The translations under genes were made by a program, and so were the position numbers. Below, one piece after another: positions 47,998 through 56,378 of a stretch of DNA of 64,000 nt. The stretch is from Nitrosopumilus sp. (lineage in GTDB: Archaea > Thermoproteota > Nitrososphaeria > Nitrososphaerales > Nitrosopumilaceae): the NCBI GenBank assembly GCA_965218695.1, contig OZ244651.1, positions 2,336,001-2,400,000 of the forward strand, given 5' to 3'. Numbering within the stretch: the stretch's first letter is position 1; every line of letters begins with the position of its first letter. The notes beneath the pieces were generated by a model, which worked only from the letters and a program-made list of their open reading frames with translations, searched no databases and was not told the origin of the DNA.

Positions 47998-49767
47998 TTA
48001 ATTCAATGAAGAGAGTTCTCTTACCTGCCTGTTCACGTAGTCAAACCCCTCCTGCCAGAATCTTGGGGAGTGGATGTCAAACCCGTATTCGGCAAGCAGC
48101 CCCTCGGGCTTTCGGGAGCCGCCTGCTGCAAGTATGCTGATGTATGCGGGGACAAAGTCCTTGCCCTCCTTTTTGTACCTCTGGAACAGCGACAGTGCAA
48201 GCAGGTTTCCAAAAGAGTATGCATAGCAGTAGAACGGCGAGTGGTAAAAGTGCGGTATGCAGAGCCACTCGTCTGAAAAGTCCTCAGAGATATTCACGGA
48301 GTCACCAAACTGCTCTTGGAGGTTCTGCAGGTACGTCTTTGAGACCTCCTCTGTCGTGGCCCCCTGTCCTATCTGCTTGTGGGCATCCACCTCAAAGACT
48401 GTAAAAAACGACTGCCGGAGTATGGTGGCATACAGATCGTCGATCTTTTCAGAGAGCATCGCCCTCTTTTCGTCATCAGCGATACTCTCAGACAGGCTGT
48501 CATAGAGCAGCAGCTCAGAGAACGTCGATGCAGTCTCTGCCAGTGGGAGCGGTGGATCCTGGACCAGTATCGATCTGTCTCCGGCAGCCTGGCTGTGCGC
48601 TGCATGGCCAAGCTCGTGGGCCAGGGTAAAGACGTCCCTTGACTTTCCGGTAAAGTTTACCATCACGTACGGGGTAATGTCAGGCGTCAGCGTGCTGCAA
48701 AACGCCCCGTCCCTTTTTCCGGGCCGTATCGCAGAGTCGATGTGGTTCTCCTCAAAGACGCGCCTTGCGTATCCTGCAAGGGTGCTGCTGAACCTCTCCA
48801 GCGAATCAAACACCATCCTGACTGATTTGTCATACGAGTATCTCTTTTCGGTGCGCGCAGTGGTAGGCGCATACAGGTCGTACCGCCTGAGTGCGTCCAT
48901 GTCAAGCATTTTCGCCTTTTGAACAAAGAACCTCTGAAAGACGGGCGCGTTTCTCCTGCATGCCAGAAGGAGCGATTCCACGGTTCTGTCGTCTATGTTG
49001 TTTACGATGTTTCTAATAGAGATGGGCGTCTTGTGCCCCCTAATCTCGATTCCCTCGTCCCTCCAGTTAAGTACGATATTCTGGTATATCTCGCCTGCCA
49101 CCCCCCTGTCCTGGGCATACCTTGAGAGGATGGTCTGGTAGGCGTTCTGGCGGAGATCGGGGTTTGAATTCTTGACGTAGCCGGTGATCTCCTCGCGCGT
49201 CATTGTTCTGGTTCTGCGCCCGACTTTCATCTTGTACTGGTACGCGCCGGTTATCTTGTCGTACAGCTTTGTCAGGGCCGATGCCCCCGTGACATCCAGC
49301 GTGTTGATTATCTTCTCCTCGGGCTCGCTGAGGGAGTATCGTGCAAGCAGCCTCTTGTGCAGCAGGTACTCGGCAAGCTCGCCTGCCCCGCCTGCCAGCC
49401 TTTTGGCGTCTGCCTCGCCGACGTCCTTCTTCCACCACAAATCAAAGAATAGGATGCGGTTGGATACCTCAGAACTCAGTTTGAGCATCCGCGTCATCAG
49501 CGATGTTGCCTCATCTGACTGGGTGTCTGCTGCGTACGACAGGGACGCGTATCCCACGACCTTGTGCGTCTCCTCTGAGATCTCCTCTATGGCCCCCAGC
49601 ATCCCCATGAACCTCGCAGGAGAGATTTGGGGGGCCAGCTCGGACTTTGCCTTTTCAAACTTTTTTGCCTTTCGTTCCAGTCTGCGTACCTGTCTCTGGA
49701 AGACCTTGCCCTTTGGATCATCTGCCAGTTCCGACAGGCTCCATTCCCCCAGGGCGTATTGGATCAT
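47998..49767 (-). CDS. pepF: Oligoendopeptidase F (M3B)
   Basis: GKRDGAFC, TLAHELGH, LAETASTFSE and IPHFY..FYCYAY. Confidence 0.93.
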   Translation of the reverse strand: MIQYALGEWSLSELADDPKGKVFQRQVRRLERKAKKFEKAKSELAPQISPARFMGMLGAIEEISEETHKVVGYASLSYAADTQSDEATSLMTRMLKLSSEVSNRILFFDLWWKKDVGEADAKRLAGGAGELAEYLLHKRLLARYSLSEPEEKIINTLDVTGASALTKLYDKITGAYQYKMKVGRRTRTMTREEITGYVKNSNPDLRQNAYQTILSRYAQDRGVAGEIYQNIVLNWRDEGIEIRGHKTPISIRNIVNNIDDRTVESLLLACRRNAPVFQRFFVQKAKMLDMDALRRYDLYAPTTARTEKRYSYDKSVRMVFDSLERFSSTLAGYARRVFEENHIDSAIRPGKRDGAFCSTLTPDITPYVMVNFTGKSRDVFTLAHELGHAAHSQAAGDRSILVQDPPLPLAETASTFSELLLYDSLSESIADDEKRAMLSEKIDDLYATILRQSFFTVFEVDAHKQIGQGATTEEVSKTYLQNLQEQFGDSVNISEDFSDEWLCIPHFYHSPFYCYAYSFGNLLALSLFQRYKKEGKDFVPAYISILAAGGSRKPEGLLAEYGFDIHSPRFWQEGFDYVNRQVRELSSLN

Positions 49768-49838
49768 GGGTCTTGCTCTCTTGCGACCATTAAAAAATCA
49801 ATGGTATGTATCTGCACGTGCAGGATTCTGGCAGTGCC

Positions 49839-50378
49839 TCAGTATTTTTGGAGGGTGTCCTTGTAGCGCTTTATGGAGCCGATGATGACAGACTTTGCAT
49901 CATCAGACGGCTTCCACCCCATTATCTCGACTTTCTTTCCCTCCAGATCCTTGTAGACCTGGAAAAAGTGGGCAATCTCGGAGCGGTAGTGATCCTCGAT
50001 GTCTGTGATGTCTGCGGCGTGAAGGTACCGCGGGTCGTTGGTGGAGACGCAGATTATCTTGTCATCGAGCTTTCCGTCATCCATCATCTGCAGCAGCCCG
50101 ATGGGTCTTGCCTCTATGAGGATGCCAGGATACGTGGGGTTGGTGACCAGCACCAGGGCGTCAAGCGGGTCTCCGTCCTCAGAAAGTGTCTGGGGGACGA
50201 GTCCGTAGTCCCCCGGGTAGTGGAACGGCGAGAACAGGACCCTGTCAAGCTTTATCAGGTTGTGTTTTTTGTCGTACTCGTACTTGTTCATCGAGCCCTT
50301 TGGAATCTCCACGATCACGTTGATTATCTCCGGGATGTCGATTCCCGGTTCGATGTCGTGCCAGAAGTTCTTGGTCAT
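49839..50378 (-). CDS. ppa: Inorganic pyrophosphatase
   Basis: VEIPKGSMNKYE, YPGDYG, DGDPLD and DDKII; start ATG 50378 or 50405. Confidence 0.96.
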   Translation of the reverse strand: MTKNFWHDIEPGIDIPEIINVIVEIPKGSMNKYEYDKKHNLIKLDRVLFSPFHYPGDYGLVPQTLSEDGDPLDALVLVTNPTYPGILIEARPIGLLQMMDDGKLDDKIICVSTNDPRYLHAADITDIEDHYRSEIAHFFQVYKDLEGKKVEIMGWKPSDDAKSVIIGSIKRYKDTLQKY

Positions 50379-50563
50379 CTGGCTACAGGCGGCACGGTTT
50401 GACATATGAATTATGGTTCTGTTAACTTATCAAGATCTGCTGGTGGCTGTTAACAGTCGTGATCTGGCTCTGGCAAATTTTTGTGATTTTCTTCCCAACG
50501 TTTACCAAAATCATTGCCAGCACATGTATTATATTTTTAATAAAAAATACAAAATTCGAAAGC

Positions 50564-50573
50564 ATTTAAATAA
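50564..50573 (+). promoter_or_regulatory. Probable original TATA box of tnpB, now displaced by the nested ISs
   Basis: ATTTAAATAA lies about 22-31 bp before the tnpB ATG once the inserted ISs are removed. Confidence 0.55.
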
Positions 50574-50758
50574 AAAATGTGCTTTATTGTAATAGAAGCC
50601 ATGCGTAATCCCTCCATTTCGTTGGGTTAAACCAGAAAAACCCAGAAAATATTAAAAATTCTGATTTAATTCTCGCCATGTTAGCCATGTGGGGATCCTG
50701 TCCTGCCAGAAATACAAAATAACGTGCGCAACCTTGCAGCACCACGATGTGCACGGAA

Positions 50759-52072
50759 TTAATTGTTTGAAACGGCGCTGCCGGGGACGTTTGCCTCTTC
50801 CCAGTTTATTACCGGCCCCAGCGTGCTACCTGAAGGAGGTCCTTTCTTCATCTGGTTCCACAGGAGGTCCAGGTTTACGAGTCCGGTTATTATGTTAAAT
50901 TCCCTGTTAAAGTCGCCAATCTTTCCCTTGTATGGCGCGGTAAGCCGGCCGTACCGCTTCAGCCTGCCGATGGAGTGCTCCACCTTTACCCTGGCCGAGT
51001 TGACGGCGTGGTTGTGCTCCTTTTCCTCCTTTGTAAAGCGCTTGTGGTTCTTGGTCTTCTTGTGCGGCTGCAGGGTGTTTGTGCCGGGCAGATCCTTTGC
51101 GATTCCCTTGTAGCCGCGGTCAGTAAGGGTGTGGATCCTGTCCTCTTCGGGGGTGTTCTCGTCGCACATGCGGTCCCACCATTTTCCAAACGGCAGCGGG
51201 CTCTCCCTGAGCAGCGTGATGTCGTGGACGGATCCCACGGTGCTGCCGGATATGGCGACTATCACCCCGTTTTCATTTATGCAGACTGTGGTGTTGAGCG
51301 TGAATTTCTTCTTCTTGCCCGAATACATCATGCTCCTCATCTGTTTTTCGTCCGGCCTCTGTATGGGGCAGTGCGTGCCGTCGATCATCATGATGCCCCC
51401 GTCAGGCCCGGAAATTATTTTTTTGAGATCCTCTTTTGTCTCCGTGCCTGCTATCTCCTTTGATATGTTGGCAGCAGTGGGCAGCGCCGCCTCGAGTACC
51501 GCGTCCATGACGTCGATGTACCTGGACACGGTCGCCTGGTCTATTCCAAAGAATGCCGCAAGCGCGCCCTGCGTGGGGTTGCCCTTTTTGTACATCAGTG
51601 ACATGAGTAGCGCGTGCCTTGGGTACAGCTTGCAGCGGTTCCCGGGATCCGACGCCCTCGTCTCGTCGTTCCTGAAGAGCGGGGATTTGCCGCTTTGTCT
51701 TATCCATGCCTCGGCCCTGTCAAGTATGTACTGGAATTGCCCCCTGCCCTTCAGCGTCGCGTCATGAAGCTTCTTCCCGACGCCGATGACGTCGTCAAGC
51801 ACCTCCACGCGGTGCAGCAGGGCGGGCTCCCCTGCGGCTCCGGACTCGGAGCCGTCCCGCGTGCTCCACAGGCTTTGCTCGTGCTTGGCGGCTGCCTCCA
51901 AGCGCTTGATGTCAGCGTCCTGGCGCTTGATGTCAGCGTCCTGGCGCTTGATGTCAGCGTCCTGGCGCTTGATCATGTATCTGAGAGCCTTGTTCTCTTT
52001 TTGCAGGTCACTTGTTTCCTGATTCGACAACAGTATGAACCGGCATATTCTGGTTTTAATTGGATGGATCAT
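50759..52072 (-). CDS. IS5-type transposase, copy 2, with KRQDADI heptad expansion
   Basis: Near-identical to 21277-22527, plus 21 aa. Confidence 0.93.
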   Translation of the reverse strand: MIHPIKTRICRFILLSNQETSDLQKENKALRYMIKRQDADIKRQDADIKRQDADIKRLEAAAKHEQSLWSTRDGSESGAAGEPALLHRVEVLDDVIGVGKKLHDATLKGRGQFQYILDRAEAWIRQSGKSPLFRNDETRASDPGNRCKLYPRHALLMSLMYKKGNPTQGALAAFFGIDQATVSRYIDVMDAVLEAALPTAANISKEIAGTETKEDLKKIISGPDGGIMMIDGTHCPIQRPDEKQMRSMMYSGKKKKFTLNTTVCINENGVIVAISGSTVGSVHDITLLRESPLPFGKWWDRMCDENTPEEDRIHTLTDRGYKGIAKDLPGTNTLQPHKKTKNHKRFTKEEKEHNHAVNSARVKVEHSIGRLKRYGRLTAPYKGKIGDFNREFNIITGLVNLDLLWNQMKKGPPSGSTLGPVINWEEANVPGSAVSNN

Positions 52073-52140
52073 AAATTTTTGACAGCAGGGCTAACATGTC
52101 AGCGCGGAGTTTGAAAAAGTTCCGGATTACGCATATTTTC

Positions 52141-53781
52141 GTAACTGCATAGTTTTTTGATCAAATGTTGAACTCCATGCCTACGCGCGTCTATGCAGTT
52201 TTTTGACGTGGAGCCAGGCCCTCGCGCAGGATCGTGCCAAGATCATCTCCCCTTGCCTTGCATGTCTGCTTGATGCTCATCAGCGTGGCAATGGCATCTG
52301 CACCCTTCTTTGACCTGCTCCCGTTGCTGTTCTTGCGCAGGATGACGCACGGCCTGATGGCCCGCTCTGCCCGGTTGTTGTGGTATTCGACGCCGTCTGT
52401 CTCCAGAAACGCAAACAGGTGGCCTTTTTCCCGCACCAGCCTCTTGCGCATCCTGTTGCAGTGCTTGCAGTCGCGGTCCTTTTCGAGCCTGCCGATAAGT
52501 GACGCAATACGACGATCCAGCCTCTTCTTTGCGGCAAGCGCGTCTGCCCCTCCCGGAACGGCGCCGTCGATGTGCGAGTCCCACAGTATCGCGCGCAGCG
52601 TCCTTGCGTGACGCTTGTAGTCGTAGCCGGGATTCTTGTATTTCAGGGTGTCCTTGATGTCCCGGGCGTAATGAAGGTGGCACTTTTGGTGTTCGGATCC
52701 GATGACGTTCCACGCGGCCCACGAGTCAGACGTGACGCATCCCGGGTAGTCCTTGCCGAGCATCTTTTTTGGAACCTTCGAGTTCCTGTGGCGGTGCACC
52801 TCGTAGATTACGGCGTACCTGGCTACAGCCACCCACAGCCAGTAGTTCGTGCCGTCGACGCGCCAGATTGTCTCGTCCCCGTTTATCGCAGGCGAGTTTC
52901 TTACCTCCTCCTTGATCTTCTCGTACAGCGGCCCGAGCTCCCGGGCCATCCTGCACACCATGCGGTTTATCGCAGATTCCGTGATTCTTGCCGAGTACAT
53001 CATCATGACAATATTGCATATTCTGAGGTCTGACATGCCGTGCAGCCTGAGGATGACCATCATTATCATAAAGTTGATCCCGTACCTGGAGTTTGGCAGT
53101 GCCAGCGGGGTCCTGCCGGACACGGTCCTCTTGCAGTTCCTGCAACGCCTTCTCTTTACTGTCACCTTGATGTGCTTTAGTTCCGTCTTGGCAGCCTCCC
53201 TTACCACCTTTGTGTACGTGGATACGCACTCGGAGAGGTCGGAGCTGCCGCAGTTGTCGCACGTGTGGGGATCTGCCGTCTCCTCTGCGTCTATTCTTTC
53301 AGGACGCGCAAGGCCCGTGCGTTTGTGGTCACTTGGCTTGCCCTTGGCCTTGCCCTTGCCCTTTGCGCGGCGCCGGGTACTGCCGGTCTTTTTGTCCGGT
53401 TTTGCGCCGATGCTCCTTGCAACGGCAGCCGATATGATGCCCTTTGCCTCCTGCAACTCTGCCGTGAGATCCTGGATCTGTTTGAGGGCGGCAGCGTAAA
53501 GATCAGCGAGTTTGGCCATCTGCCGGTCTTTTTCGGCCATCTGCCGGTCTTTTTCGGCCATCTGCTCTGCCATCACACCCACTTTTTCCTCCAGTTCTGC
53601 AATCCTTGACTCGGAATTATCATCAGACATATGCAAACCGTGGGCAACAATGATCTAAAAATTAGGACGGAGAGAAAAACTCGATCAAGTGATCAAAAAT
53701 AGTTTTAAAAAATTAGACAGACGCGGATTTTCTGATTGTAGATATGGAGTTCAACATTTGATCAAAAAACTACACAGATAC
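52141..53781 (-). mobile_element. IS66-family element, copy 2
   Basis: TIRs as in copy 1 (one end reads ATAC instead of TTAC); 8-bp TSD ATATTTTC. Confidence 0.93.
52191..53630 (-). CDS. IS66 transposase, copy 2
   Basis: Near-identical to 41288-42694; NGDET, NNRAERAIRP. Confidence 0.94.
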   Translation of the reverse strand: MSDDNSESRIAELEEKVGVMAEQMAEKDRQMAEKDRQMAKLADLYAAALKQIQDLTAELQEAKGIISAAVARSIGAKPDKKTGSTRRRAKGKGKAKGKPSDHKRTGLARPERIDAEETADPHTCDNCGSSDLSECVSTYTKVVREAAKTELKHIKVTVKRRRCRNCKRTVSGRTPLALPNSRYGINFMIMMVILRLHGMSDLRICNIVMMMYSARITESAINRMVCRMARELGPLYEKIKEEVRNSPAINGDETIWRVDGTNYWLWVAVARYAVIYEVHRHRNSKVPKKMLGKDYPGCVTSDSWAAWNVIGSEHQKCHLHYARDIKDTLKYKNPGYDYKRHARTLRAILWDSHIDGAVPGGADALAAKKRLDRRIASLIGRLEKDRDCKHCNRMRKRLVREKGHLFAFLETDGVEYHNNRAERAIRPCVILRKNSNGSRSKKGADAIATLMSIKQTCKARGDDLGTILREGLAPRQKTA

Positions 53782-53794
53782 ATATTTTCTAATA

Positions 53795-54982
53795 ATGAAA
53801 GTAACAAAATCAGTCTGGCAGTTCCACGACAAGAATGATGAACTGGTCGGTTATTTTGAGGAATTCAGGCGCATCACAAACGAGTCTGTCCGTCTTGGAT
53901 TGGAACGCGGGCTGACTTCAAGAAAATCTTTCCACGAGTCAATATATCCAGAACTAAAAAGTGACTTGTACGCATCTGTCAAACAGTGCGCGATCTATTC
54001 GGCAAAATCCATGTTGAAAGCAATGCGCACGAACAGGAGAAAAGGCAGGAAAGCCGGAACTCCTTACGTCACTGGAAGGGTGTTGAAATTCAACAACCAG
54101 GCATGCAAGATTGCAGGCGGATGCGTGGAGCTGTCGATAAAGGTCGAGACAAGGATAAAAATCAAGCTGTCGTCATACGTGCTAGAAAAAATAGACGGAA
54201 TGAACCTGGGAGGAATCACTGTCACTCCGAATAAGATAATATTATCGTATTCTAAAAAAATCGAAGAAAAAACTCCCACAGGATACATTGGAATAGACAT
54301 GAATTTTGACAACGTGACTACGTGCAACACTGACGACAGGATAACCAAGCACGACCTGTCAAACGTTGGCAAGATAAAACATAGATGCAGGGAAACAGTC
54401 TCGCATTTCAAGCGAAATGACTACAGGATAAGAAAAAAGATAGCCGGCAAGTACGGCAGGATTGGAAAAAACAGGACGAATGACATCCTGCACAAGACCA
54501 GCAAGAGAATAATCGAAGCCGGACACGTTCCGGTTAGGGAAGATTTGGAAGGAATTTCAAAACTGTGGAACAAGAAAAACAAGAGGGGAAAGAATGTCAA
54601 CTTCCGGGGCAAGAACTGGAGATATTACGAACTTGGAAGACAGCTGGACTACAAAGCCAGATGGAACGGAATCGTTCCAATAAAGATAAATCCAAAAGGC
54701 ACAAGCTCGAAATGCGCGGGATGTGGTGGAAAGATGTCAAACGCCGAAGAGCGCAGAATGGTGCGATGCCCTGTAGGAAACATCACGGTAGACCGTGACA
54801 AGCACGCAAGTATCAACATACTTGCACGAGGCCTGAAGGTCGGGCCCGTAGGATCCGCAAGTGAAGCGATGGGGATGGATAGCCACGAGAGGATAAGTCT
54901 CATGGTGAAGAATTCAGTCGATGCGGATCAGTTGGCAAATTGCAGATCACGGCGGTTAACAGCCGTCAGCAGATCTCGATGA
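53795..54982 (+). CDS. tnpB: TnpB (Cas12f-like) RNA-guided endonuclease
   Basis: RuvC-I GIDMN, LHKTSKRII, RuvC-II REDL, QLDYKA, TSSKCAGCG and RuvC-III DRDKHASINIL. The second Zn knuckle reads CPVG. Confidence 0.93.
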   Translation: MKVTKSVWQFHDKNDELVGYFEEFRRITNESVRLGLERGLTSRKSFHESIYPELKSDLYASVKQCAIYSAKSMLKAMRTNRRKGRKAGTPYVTGRVLKFNNQACKIAGGCVELSIKVETRIKIKLSSYVLEKIDGMNLGGITVTPNKIILSYSKKIEEKTPTGYIGIDMNFDNVTTCNTDDRITKHDLSNVGKIKHRCRETVSHFKRNDYRIRKKIAGKYGRIGKNRTNDILHKTSKRIIEAGHVPVREDLEGISKLWNKKNKRGKNVNFRGKNWRYYELGRQLDYKARWNGIVPIKINPKGTSSKCAGCGGKMSNAEERRMVRCPVGNITVDRDKHASINILARGLKVGPVGSASEAMGMDSHERISLMVKNSVDADQLANCRSRRLTAVSRSR

Positions 54983-54994
54983 GTTAACAGAACC
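54830..54994 (+). ncRNA. Putative omega/reRNA scaffold overlapping the tnpB 3' end and right TIR
   Basis: Stems GGCCTGA/TCGGGCC, GATCCGCA/TGCGGATC, CCACGAGA/TCTCATGG, ACGGC/GCCGT and AGATC/GATCT at the position expected for TnpB guide RNAs. Boundaries inferred. Confidence 0.6.
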
Positions 54995-55045
54995 TGAATT
55001 ATCAGAAATGGGTCAGGGTGTTGTGGCTGGCAAGACACGGTTCTG

Positions 55046-55480
55046 TTAGGCCAGCAGATTGGTGTTTGGCACAACCCTGAAGATGTGCACGGAGTAGTCC
55101 CCCGAGAAGAGGTTTACGTACTCCCCAGTCAGGGCGTCAAGGTTTCTGACTCGGAATATGTACTCGTACGAGCCGTCATCGAGCGGATCGACTTGCGCGG
55201 TGTGGACTAGATCCACATTTTGATAAAACTGGATTACTACCGCATAGCCGTCAACATGTTCGGACGGTTCCCCGCTGACTGCCCCCCAGGGATGCGTGTT
55301 GGTCAGGGGGATGTTCATTGGTATGACAGTCTTTTCCATGCTGATCTCCTCGTTTAGCGGAACGACTGTGACAGTCCCGACATTTGGTTCTGCAGACACG
55401 ATTGCCGGAATGCCGATCATGCCAAGTACGGCCATTGCAGAGACAGTCATGAGAAGACCCGATGTTATCATTGTTAGCAT
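55046..55480 (-). CDS. Secreted hypothetical protein
   Basis: Signal peptide and a beta-rich domain; TATA (atttatttaa) upstream. Confidence 0.75.
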   Translation of the reverse strand: MLTMITSGLLMTVSAMAVLGMIGIPAIVSAEPNVGTVTVVPLNEEISMEKTVIPMNIPLTNTHPWGAVSGEPSEHVDGYAVVIQFYQNVDLVHTAQVDPLDDGSYEYIFRVRNLDALTGEYVNLFSGDYSVHIFRVVPNTNLLA

Positions 55481-55524
55481 GGATTGTACCGTTGAGGCTT
55501 AAATAAATTTCTGCAAATCAATCA

Positions 55525-55656
55525 TCATGGAATCTCGTCTTCAATATCAGAGCATGCCTTGTGAACCCATTGGTTCTTGGAGTTCTTTGCTATCTCCCTG
55601 CCGGTCTTTATCGCATCCCCGCATTCTATGCATTTTCCGTTGAACCGCGCCTTCAT
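55525..55656 (-). CDS. Small zinc-finger protein
   Basis: MKARFNGKCIECG...WVHKAC; start ATG 55656. Confidence 0.75.
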   Translation of the reverse strand: MKARFNGKCIECGDAIKTGREIAKNSKNQWVHKACSDIEDEIP

Positions 55657-55835
55657 CAGAATTCCATGAAACGTCTCTGCTTTTAAAGTTGGCTTATCCC
55701 AAATGCATGCCTGCAAAGACAGCCAATGGTGTGCAGTTGGGACACGGACGCTAATGCTGCTGCTGTTGCTGTTGCTGCTGCCACAGGCTACCCCACGTAA
55801 CGAGTCTTTTTATAGCACTCTTCAAGCAAAACACC

Positions 55836-56378
55836 GTGCAACAAACACATTACAACAAACTCAGCCTTGTAATGCTGGGCCTTGTCGTGTTTTGCTCGGT
55901 CGTCGCATCCTTGGTCGTGGTCTTCTTTTTAGCTCCGATGGTGATTTATGGCGGCGGGCCGTTCGGAATGGGCGCACCCCCGGATATTCCGGATGATGTG
56001 CTGCAGGATCTAAAGGATGAGATTTACGCACTAGAGTCCGTAACCACGTTCAAAGAGACGCATCCAAGTTACAGGGAGCACCTTGAGGAGCACTATGGTG
56101 TGGAATATGTCATACAGGCCAGAAATTCAAACACGGGCAACATATTATCGCTAATGATCAACTATCATCCCCTGGGGCCTCCCGGAAGCACCGACGAATT
56201 CCAAAGCAACTCCCACCTGGAATGCATTCCGGGAGAAGGAATTTTGGGACCCGAAAGCATGATGATGCAAAGCATGTTCAGGGGCATGGGCGGGGAGGAT
56301 CTGTTCATTCACGAGACAATCAAGGCTACAAACTGCCTTGATGACGATTGGGAGCCGGTCATGGTCACCGACAGGTAG
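55836..56378 (+). CDS. Membrane-anchored hypothetical protein
   Basis: N-terminal TM helix and an acidic external domain with two Cys. Confidence 0.7.
   Translation: MQQTHYNKLSLVMLGLVVFCSVVASLVVVFFLAPMVIYGGGPFGMGAPPDIPDDVLQDLKDEIYALESVTTFKETHPSYREHLEEHYGVEYVIQARNSNTGNILSLMINYHPLGPPGSTDEFQSNSHLECIPGEGILGPESMMMQSMFRGMGGEDLFIHETIKATNCLDDDWEPVMVTDR

Follow-up and report, generated by a model that had tools for sequence, protein, structure and literature searches.

A tnpB gene in the genome of a Nitrosopumilus archaeon is carried by an element with terminal inverted repeats (TIRs) and an 8-bp target-site duplication (TSD). The unit is arranged as TIR, short leader, tnpB, omegaRNA and TIR, typically measures 1.2-1.4 kb, contains no transposase and is bounded by 8-bp TSDs at many unrelated sites. 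We consider it probable that this is a non-autonomous mobile element from a large clade of archaeal TnpBs, found in Nitrososphaerales and related sediment archaea, with IS6-like DDE ends, mobilisation in trans, and an omegaRNA that serves homing.

Structure of the TnpB element

The window (the whole 64,000-nucleotide stretch of DNA that was analysed) contains the following features.

50407..50414, no strand: left TSD TGAATTAT, from direct reading and repeat comparison; one copy only at the empty site in genome G018 (locus L186)
50415..50466, + strand: left TIR, 52 bp, two CTGTTAAC..GATCTG units; the GG start and G at position 7 match the IS6 consensus in the available sections of PMC6807381
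50467..50594, + strand: 5' non-coding region of the TnpB element, from direct reading
50595..52140, - strand: nested IS5-like element with a DDE_Tnp_4 transposase (50759-52072); 21 genome hits longer than 1,200 bp at >90% identity
52141..53781, - strand: nested IS66 element with its transposase (52191-53636); 20 genome hits
53795..54982, + strand: tnpB, 395 aa, with the stop codon within the right TIR
54943..54994, - strand: right TIR, 52 bp, from repeat comparison
54995..55002, + strand: right TSD TGAATTAT, from direct reading; predicted to be the first 8 nt of the guide

As the original prediction had described, 50415-50466 and the reverse complement of 54943-54994 are identical at 46/52 positions, two CTGTTAAC..GATCTG units can be read in each TIR, and an exact TGAATTAT (8/8) directly flanks both TIRs. 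In a chance estimate, a match of at least 7/8 to the left TSD occurred at 8 of 13,568 decoy offsets. Contigs of run X2 span both junctions (49900-50619 and 53753-55500). Without its nested insertions, IS5-like and IS66, the element is left with a core of 1,380 bp that has tnpB as its sole gene, and the repeats of 49500-56000 include no CRISPR or other repeat array; the predicted core size of about 1380 bp and the predicted lack of tnpA, a serine recombinase and a CRISPR array were thus both borne out. A TATA-like TTTAAATA at 50565-50572, which lies 22 nt 5' of the tnpB ATG after removal of the nested elements, resembles the archaeal TATA consensus and is a putative promoter of tnpB; a sigma-70 scan, whose model is ill-suited to archaea, gave no match.

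The IS66 element sits within the right end of the IS5-like element and is flanked by duplicated ATATTTTC (52133-52140 and 53782-53789), while TAATA is repeated around the nested insertions (50590-50594 and 53790-53794). The IS66 gene of the window is part of its own nested element, not of the TnpB element. Because the nested insertions (3.2 kb) part tnpB from its leader, the window copy is probably silenced.

The insertion site is empty in G018, where a single TGAATTAT stands, so that the expected empty site in relatives was recovered. Reciprocally, G002 carries an 81%-identical copy elsewhere, flanked by a TSD of its own, at a position that is empty in the window genome (G000). Both empty alleles lack the entire unit and retain one TSD copy each. 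The closest two copies, those of the window and G002, are both interrupted by nested ISs, and they share the doubled long TIR that marks this lineage; most relatives have one unit of ~18-25 bp.

The TnpB protein passes the NCBIfam model guided_TnpB (NF040570; 121 bits, cut-off 100), and its nearest solved structure is the 408-aa TnpB 8bf8 (E 2.5e-9). The RuvC residues D168/E249/D335 are intact and the zinc finger reads C-C-C-G, confirming the intact triad and the lost last cysteine of the original prediction. Among 37 aligned proteins with TIR and TSD, RuvC D-E-D is kept in 35. Three other identities were rejected: Cas12f (type V-F), with 60.7 bits for NF049972 against a cut-off of 450 and no array in 49500-56000; IS607, with 33.9 bits for NF038280 against a cut-off of 350, no serine recombinase ORF, and a TIR and TSD present; and IS200/IS605 including IS1341, given the 46/52 TIR, the 8/8 TSD and a core without Y1 TnpA. 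A crude motif scan for Y1 gave 0 hits among 1,093 upstream ORFs.

The layout recurs across an archaeal TnpB clade

A TIR and TSD pair was scored at 39 of 221 related TnpB loci (25/141 from genomes and 14/80 from metagenomes), and the same scorer found 0/46 among distant viral TnpB loci; viral contigs yielded distant TnpBs only and served as controls. The other 182 of the 221 loci had no scored pair, and many of them keep the right end alone. Copies in other surroundings, each with an 8-bp TSD of its own, which the original prediction had anticipated, include the G002 copy and two paralogues with exact duplications in the window genome (C1:765674-767011 and 825049-826376). The same layout is seen at 37 distinct sites, spread over deep branches of the TnpB tree. 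Of the distinct TSD-bearing elements, 35/37 span 1,217-1,451 bp, so that a transposase would not fit, and the remaining two hold nested ISs. Uninterrupted members include L017, L027 and L028. In a FastTree tree, L013 and L150 sit on long branches through mis-extraction. In a second tree, computed without L013, 35 TIR- and TSD-bearing proteins together with 11 further homologues are separated from 31 viral TnpBs by a branch with SH-aLRT 98.

Wherever the clade was seen, it was chromosomal. Some TIR pairs have no matching TSD, which is compatible with replicative, cointegrate-forming movement and also with mis-assembly.

A predicted omegaRNA ends at the right TIR

54830..54994, + strand: predicted omegaRNA scaffold overlapping the tnpB 3' end, from covariation among 44 homologues
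54830-54846, + strand: scaffold hairpin, from the covariation model
54852-54859 pairing with 54922-54929, + strand: long stem of the scaffold, enclosing an inner stem

The scaffold was aligned from 44 of 57 sequences after near-duplicates were dropped, with 12 further loci lacking the anchor motif left out. In this alignment, 91% of scaffold cells are paired, compared with 73.5% in shuffled and 28-42% in slid controls, and two-sided changes occur at 19/31 scaffold pairs, demonstrating covariation of the omegaRNA; its transcript would extend from the tnpB 3' end across the right TIR and on into the flank. The terminal stem lies inside the right TIR, and sequence conservation ends at the TIR terminus with no other boundary between scaffold and TIR. 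An Rfam search of 54600-55100 with E up to 1 returned no match. Since the scaffold ends at the right TIR, the guide would begin with the TSD: by analogy with OMEGA architecture, the right TSD would supply the guide's first 8 nt, with the host flank providing the remainder. Searching the window genome for this guide with up to 3 mismatches recovered only the flank of the element itself and two 3-mismatch sites.

A pseudoknot is predicted between the loop 54835-54841 and the last five bases of the right TIR (54990-54994), and the terminal GAACC of this TIR probably closes it. GGTTC is found at the right end of 33/37 elements and at the left end of 21/37, and the discordant cases favour the right end in 12/12. 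The pseudoknot is fully paired in 135/163, a count that is partly circular because the consensus seeded both finders; the 44-row alignment contains no two-sided change in it, and A-U replaces G-C in L297 and L079. The window copy pairs at 3/5 positions only.

A putative TAM outside the TSD and a homing model

50404..50406, + strand: putative TAM position, ATA in the window copy, directly 5' of the left TSD

The family favours T-(T/A)-N at this position: T-(T/A) stands at -3/-2 of the left TSD at 27/37 sites and at the mirror position at 7/37, compared with 8/24 and 4/24 for the same positions in the TnpB-free transposase elements described below, in a comparison for which the motif was picked post hoc, kin are not independent, and two duplicate sites were dropped from each set. 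The ATA of the window copy does not match this TAM-like T-(T/A). T-(T/A)-N outside the left TSD is thus a putative TAM. Promoter-adjacent insertion may confound this signal, as suggested by an AT-rich patch between -13 and -7.

With such a TAM, TnpB would cut the element-free allele, which consists of the TAM, one TSD copy and the right flank. Filled sites would be spared, because in them the TIR follows the left TSD, and the TIR, not the TAM, precedes the right TSD. Repair templated by the filled copy would then restore or spread the element, that is, homing. The source of empty alleles would be precise loss mediated by the TSDs, or else incoming or sister chromosomes; transposase excision would not supply them because IS6-type movement is replicative. 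We tentatively propose that the deep-branching archaeal TnpB clade consists of transposase-less parasites of IS6-like replicative transposons in which the OMEGA layout has been rebuilt, with the right TIR closing the pseudoknot, the 8-bp TSD as guide seed, the TAM outside the TSD, and copies enriched by homing into empty alleles, a possible undescribed pairing distinct from DDE-1 to DDE-6 and Fanzor. As the transposase would have little sequence preference, this proposal attributes the enrichment of TAM-adjacent copies to later homing rather than to post-excision repair.

On the same chassis, TnpB might instead be passive cargo that gains nothing from homing, the TSD-side bias arising from promoter-adjacent insertion or transposase preference. 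Varied cargo in related transposase elements of 2.0-6.5 kb would be in keeping with this, as would the nested ISs that break the window and G002 copies and the preference of both element types for A/T at the third base outwards on both sides, with AT-rich patches further upstream; the available part of PMC13565253 (section 6.2) also argues that OMEGA systems bring DDE transposons little benefit. We nevertheless regard passive carriage as unlikely: the RuvC triad persists over protein identities of 29-100%, the covarying scaffold stops exactly at the TIR, conservation is higher at the right end than at the left, and the T-(T/A) bias follows the orientation of tnpB and is less marked in transposase elements.

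An IS6-like transposase is the candidate mover

Four transposase queries from the window genome were used at the 221 loci, of which 139 had at least 3 kb of upstream sequence. They detected no IS6-like transposase between the ends of TIR-bounded TnpB elements, none within 1,000 bp of tnpB, and no element that holds transposase and tnpB together. The nearest IS6-like transposases (L175 and L297) are more than 1.3 kb off, beyond the ends of the TnpB element, and the one close by at L084 is likewise outside it.

Most loci retrieved by PF13610 with flanks of 1.5 kb did not reach both ends, and 40 loci with frames of ~370-415 aa on long contigs were hand-picked and refetched at 14 kb. TnpB-free IS6-like transposase elements with the same ends and an 8-bp TSD were present at 23/40, and tnpB at none; they measure 2.0-6.5 kb in total and hold assorted cargo. 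One intact element of this kind resides in the window genome (G000:C1:1109206-1111904), with its transposase gene at 1109864-1111000, and its TIR departs from that of the TnpB element after base 8. A 19-base end consensus is common to both element types, including the majority bases at positions 8, 10, 11, 13, 17, 18 and 19, which were free in the search pattern.

The candidate transposase (~380 aa) has a zinc-binding N-terminus and a DDE core. The partner is best called IS6-like: Pfam PF13610 is passed (51 bits, cut-off 27), but the partner transposases remain just under the cut-off of NCBIfam IS6 (NF033587), their best model, at 116 and 110 bits against 125. The available sections of PMC6807381 argue that 'IS6' elements of archaea, and long ones with zinc fingers, may form families of their own. 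The ends and 8-bp TSDs shared with the TnpB-free transposase elements strongly suggest that the TnpB element is moved in trans by this transposase, supporting the earlier view of a non-autonomous DDE-type element; the autonomous IS6/IS1/IS1595-type transposase looked for with the same ends is an IS6-like one, present in the window genome and relatives.

Several transposon families share GG-start ends and 8-9-bp TSDs, and the mover could in principle be another DDE family of this kind, such as IS1595, IS1 or a multi-copy IS with GGTTCTCC ends. The candidate transposase does match IS1 and IS1/IS1595 zinc-domain models weakly, and the window genome contains six copies of a related 1,695-bp IS with GGTTCTCC ends. 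However, PF12762 (IS1595) found no match in this 99.99%-complete genome, the GGTTCTCC ends part from those of the element at base 7, and the 19-base consensus agrees with the IS6-like transposase elements, making a different mover quite improbable. Least credible is an IS200/IS605 (IS1341-type) tnpB element that landed inside a MITE or between stray ends and so acquired foreign TIRs, since the same layout at 37 distinct sites in deep branches, the entry of the omegaRNA scaffold into the TIR without another boundary, and the reciprocal empty sites missing the whole unit contradict it, even though the window genome is rich in MITE-like ends and has one such motif behind the left TIR, at 50466.

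Significance

What keeps TnpB associated with DDE transposons has yet to be settled, and the restorative-homing model in the accessible text of PMC13565253 (section 6.2) expects a gain only for cleanly excising elements. A clade that rides on a family known to move replicatively, and for which sister genomes offer natural filled and empty alleles, makes the question directly testable. The layout also predicts the positions of TAM, guide and pseudoknot for many compact archaeal TnpBs, with relevance for mining archaeal TnpBs as editors and for the adaptation of omegaRNAs to new transposon ends, a step thought to come before Fanzor diversification. Databases name such archaeal TnpBs plain 'transposase' or 'InsQ/TnpB'.

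Comparison with known systems

Whether the association had been catalogued was left undecided at first. A general DDE-TnpB association is in print: in the accessible part of Altae-Tran et al. 2023 (PMC10691335), inverted ends are given for six branches of DDE-associated TnpBs (DDE-1 to DDE-6) and also for solo TnpBs; IS6 is not among the partners named there (IS630) or in the accessible part of the review PMC13565253 (ISL2, IS630 and IS1031). The elements described here share with those branches and solo TnpBs the inverted repeats, a tnpB 3' end near the transposon end and the proposed trans mobilisation. In that text a DDE gene no more than 1,000 bp away defines DDE-1 to DDE-6, whereas no IS6-like transposase was found inside the elements described here. 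DDE-5 is listed there among plasmid-borne branches with rearranged catalytic sites, whereas the window clade is archaeal with D-E-D; the clade may still be the published DDE-5 branch.

With the OMEGA-TnpBs of IS200/IS605, IS1341-type (e.g. ISDra2) and IS607 elements, the window element shares the RuvC D-E-D and a predicted omegaRNA over the tnpB 3' end up to the right end; a flank-derived guide and a T-rich motif 5' of the insertion, as in IS200/IS605 and IS607, are predicted here. Those two families have no TIR, no TSD, and Y1 or serine transposases, as the available text of PMC13565253 describes, whereas the window element has TIRs, an 8-bp TSD and a TAM position 8 bp from the element end.

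The IS6/IS26 family, in the portions available of PMC7986276 and PMC6807381, has a TIR with GG start and G at position 7 and an 8-bp TSD, as here, and the partner transposase passes PF13610 and has, like the long members, a zinc-binding N-terminal extension; unlike IS6, the window element has no transposase of its own. The accessible part of the IS6 review lists a single passenger-carrying member and two MITEs, whereas the partner elements here reach 2.0-6.5 kb with cargo. TnpB cargo is not mentioned in those portions of the two IS6 papers, and a literature search with most subscription journals outside its scope found no published TnpB-IS6 pairing. The borrowing of transposon ends is known in outline, and the IS6-like partner and the guide layout appear to be undescribed.

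Fanzor in eukaryotic TIR transposons is likewise a TnpB-like nuclease on DDE transposons with TIRs and TSDs. In Fanzor, according to the available text of section 6.2 of PMC13565253, the 5' TSD lies within the TAM and the 3' TSD within the scaffold, and Fanzor1 has lost its pseudoknot. In the window family, by contrast, the data suggest that the TAM lies outside the TSD, that the TSD serves as guide seed, and that a pseudoknot is formed with the TIR.

A genuine insertion of a mobile tnpB element

The window spans C1:2336001-2400000 of genome G000. The element at 50407-55002 is a real, well-supported insertion. As the original prediction had stated, its inverted ends (50415-50466 and 54943-54994) are identical at 46/52 positions and TGAATTAT flanks both; the two element-host junctions are spanned by contigs of sequencing run X2. 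The orthologous site upstream of ppa in the related genome G018 carries one TGAATTAT and no element. Reciprocally, the related genome G002 harbors an element that is 81% identical, with the same long TIRs and the TSD TGAACAGC, at another site, which is unoccupied in the present genome (G000) and retains a single TSD copy. Two further complete paralogues in G000 (C1:765674-767011 and C1:825049-826376; 40-42% identity) have exact 8-bp TSDs, a third (C1:917932-919268) has a damaged left end, and several right-end remnants lie elsewhere in this genome. Ends of this TIR family, and short MITE-like units belonging to it, also occur without tnpB at C1:452491, 747074 and 1558402-1558802 and at C6:6434-6677.

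The window copy contains two nested insertion sequences, each with its own duplication and ~20 genome copies, and taking them out leaves the expected tnpB-only core of 1,380 bp. The features are as follows.

50595-52140, nested IS5-like element
52141-53781, nested IS66
53795-54982, tnpB (NF040570, above the cut-off)

The RuvC triad (D168/E249/D335) is intact and the last zinc-finger Cys is lost, both as first read; the CCCG finger is common to the two closest homologues. This copy is probably silenced, because the nested elements separate a TATA-like box from the ATG. The G002 copy is also interrupted, by the same IS5-like family, and its leader is shorter and different. A contig of run X4 connects 50466 directly to 53798. 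The IS5-like::IS66 pair (50827-53781) recurs at G000:C1:2434874-2437828 with 99.97% identity over 2,955 bp, indicating that this composite was copied as a unit. Both nested transposase genes contain 21-bp tandem repeats (51899-51967 and 53511-53565), which encode heptad-like N-terminal stretches and differ in copy number among other samples. Just inside the left TIR, a motif at 50466-50490 resembles the termini of an abundant family of MITE-like units, of which the genome has 27 ends.

An IS6-like transposase as the candidate mover

PF13610 matches 16 places in G000. One of them, C1:1109206-1111904 (L002), supplies the anticipated transposase with shared ends, which begin GGTTCTGT and are flanked by an exact 8-bp TSD. 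Its 379-aa open frame, in which inspection suggests intact D, D and E motifs, scores above the PF13610 cut-off, and the best NCBIfam model is IS6, just below cut-off. Among 40 IS6-like transposase loci hand-picked from the order, 23 were bounded by the same TIR type with a TSD of at least 7/8, and none of these 23 contained tnpB. The majority bases at end positions 8, 10, 11, 13 and 17-19, which were not fixed by the search pattern, were identical in the transposase and TnpB elements. Since the ends are shared but no IS6-like transposase was present within any TnpB element searched, we infer that the TnpB elements are mobilised in trans by an IS6-like transposase. IS1595 was looked for in G000 and not found. 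We use "IS6-like" because PMC6807381 warns that the "IS6" elements of archaea, and the long ones with a zinc finger, may merit separate families.

The L002 element carries a tRNA-Leu(TAA) gene and small cargo ORFs, and position 1109599 holds an additional internal end. Often, an IS6-like transposase element is separated by precisely 8 bp from an end of a second family member (L234, L254, L265, L267, L269, L250), and three genomes of the same genus (L234, L235, L240) share one TSD. These arrangements suggest that IS6-like transposase elements target sites beside existing ends, or form tandem arrays.

A conserved scaffold at the 3' end

In an alignment of 44 3' ends, a hairpin is accompanied by three stems (long, inner and terminal), and conservation stops at the TIR. 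In this structure, drawn from the same alignment, 91% of cells were paired, versus 73.5% in shuffles and 28-42% with slid partners, and two-sided changes were found in 19/31 scaffold pairs. An Rfam search of 54600-55100 gave no match. The loop of the hairpin, GGTTC, complements the terminal GAACC of the TIR (94.5% paired, nearly invariant). The predicted pseudoknot has indirect support. GGTTC is kept at the right end in 33/37 elements and at the left end in 21/37, the right end being favoured in 12/12 discordant cases. A-U replaces G-C in one related locus pair (L297, L079), and the TIR base facing a loop with G as its third base is freer (8/13 vs 142/147). The window copy has such a variant loop, and its pseudoknot pairs 3/5 in register.

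Distribution and decay of the family

Homologues at E up to 1e-25 occur in 79/401 genomes (G000 plus 400 drawn from the order). The 141 genome loci scored comprised 25 with TIR+TSD, 25 with TIR only, 50 with the right end only and 41 with none, and the 80 metagenome loci 14, 16, 31 and 19, respectively; part of the "TIR only" class consists of chance pairs, later relabelled. An unbiased rescan added four loci with 8/8 TSDs and decayed ends, and inspection showed the RNA scaffold to persist in most loci of the "none" class. As controls, a 7/8 TSD match was reached at 8/13,568 decoy offsets, and TIR+TSD was found in 0/46 distant viral TnpB loci. Nearly all distinct TSD-bearing elements (35/37) are 1,217-1,451 bp long. 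In a quick IQ-TREE run, rooted only at the midpoint with a distant outgroup, a branch with SH-aLRT 98 separates the 35 TIR+TSD proteins and 11 further homologues from 31 viral TnpBs. As TIR+TSD copies are scattered across the larger tree, their distribution fits an old TnpB-TIR association with repeated decay.

In three pairs of copies that keep the right end alone (L075/L081, L176/L180, L072/L083), the sequence downstream, where the guide would lie, is identical or similar from one genome to another, and the third RuvC Asp is missing from L081. These TnpBs may have been immobilised or domesticated, or may just be old insertions inherited as orthologues. Other members of the same clade have different 3' ends (L032 at G000:C1:926094-927168; L084/L123; L086/L096/L108/L133/L167; L021), with the scaffold kept in all except L021, and may represent further chassis changes or domestication. 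Between its left TIR and tnpB, L020 (genome G040) has an extra 250 bp resembling the 3'-terminal part of a TnpB of the L021 type.

A putative TAM and a possible homing cycle

At 27/37 TnpB sites, T-(T/A) occupies positions -3 and -2 outside the left TSD, versus 7/37 at the mirror position. The motif was picked after the fact from sites that include kin and so lack independence; insertion beside promoters is a confounding factor for this bias, and sub-lineages differ. At transposase elements the counts on the two sides were 8/24 and 4/24. TA immediately precedes the TSD in the window and G002 copies.

The anatomy and mobility of the element, its shared ends, and the conservation of both scaffold and catalytic triad are shown by these comparisons. 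If the predicted RNA is expressed and guides cleavage and homing, the simplest reading is that the target would be the empty allele, comprising the TAM, a single TSD copy and the right flank, and both filled junctions would escape TnpB cutting. IS6 elements transpose replicatively, according to PMC7986276. Were the partner also replicative, the alleles available to TnpB would be those emptied by TSD-TSD recombination or arriving on another chromosome, and excision scars would not be its substrate.

Comparison with known systems

The original prediction proposed that TnpB had been captured by a DDE-type chassis. The element is real, but the general class is already published: PMC10691335 describes six DDE-associated TnpB branches with inverted ends, along with solo TnpBs that are moved in trans. 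According to a review from 2026 (PMC13565253), the DDE partners of TnpB are ISL2, IS630 and IS1031. A TnpB-IS6 pairing was not found in the literature searched, and such elements go unmentioned in the sections seen of a Thaumarchaeota mobilome paper (PMC6563490). What appears to be unpublished is the IS6-like partner, together with the transposase-less clade and the layout of TAM, TSD and pseudoknot. The supplement of PMC10691335 notes for DDE-5 a TA motif located 8 bp upstream from the end, similar to the window copy, but lists that branch with the plasmid-borne ones whose catalytic sites are rearranged. The DDE branches are defined there by a transposase within 1 kb. On the transposase side, the relatives of L002 are cargo transposons of 2.0-6.5 kb, unlike classical IS6.
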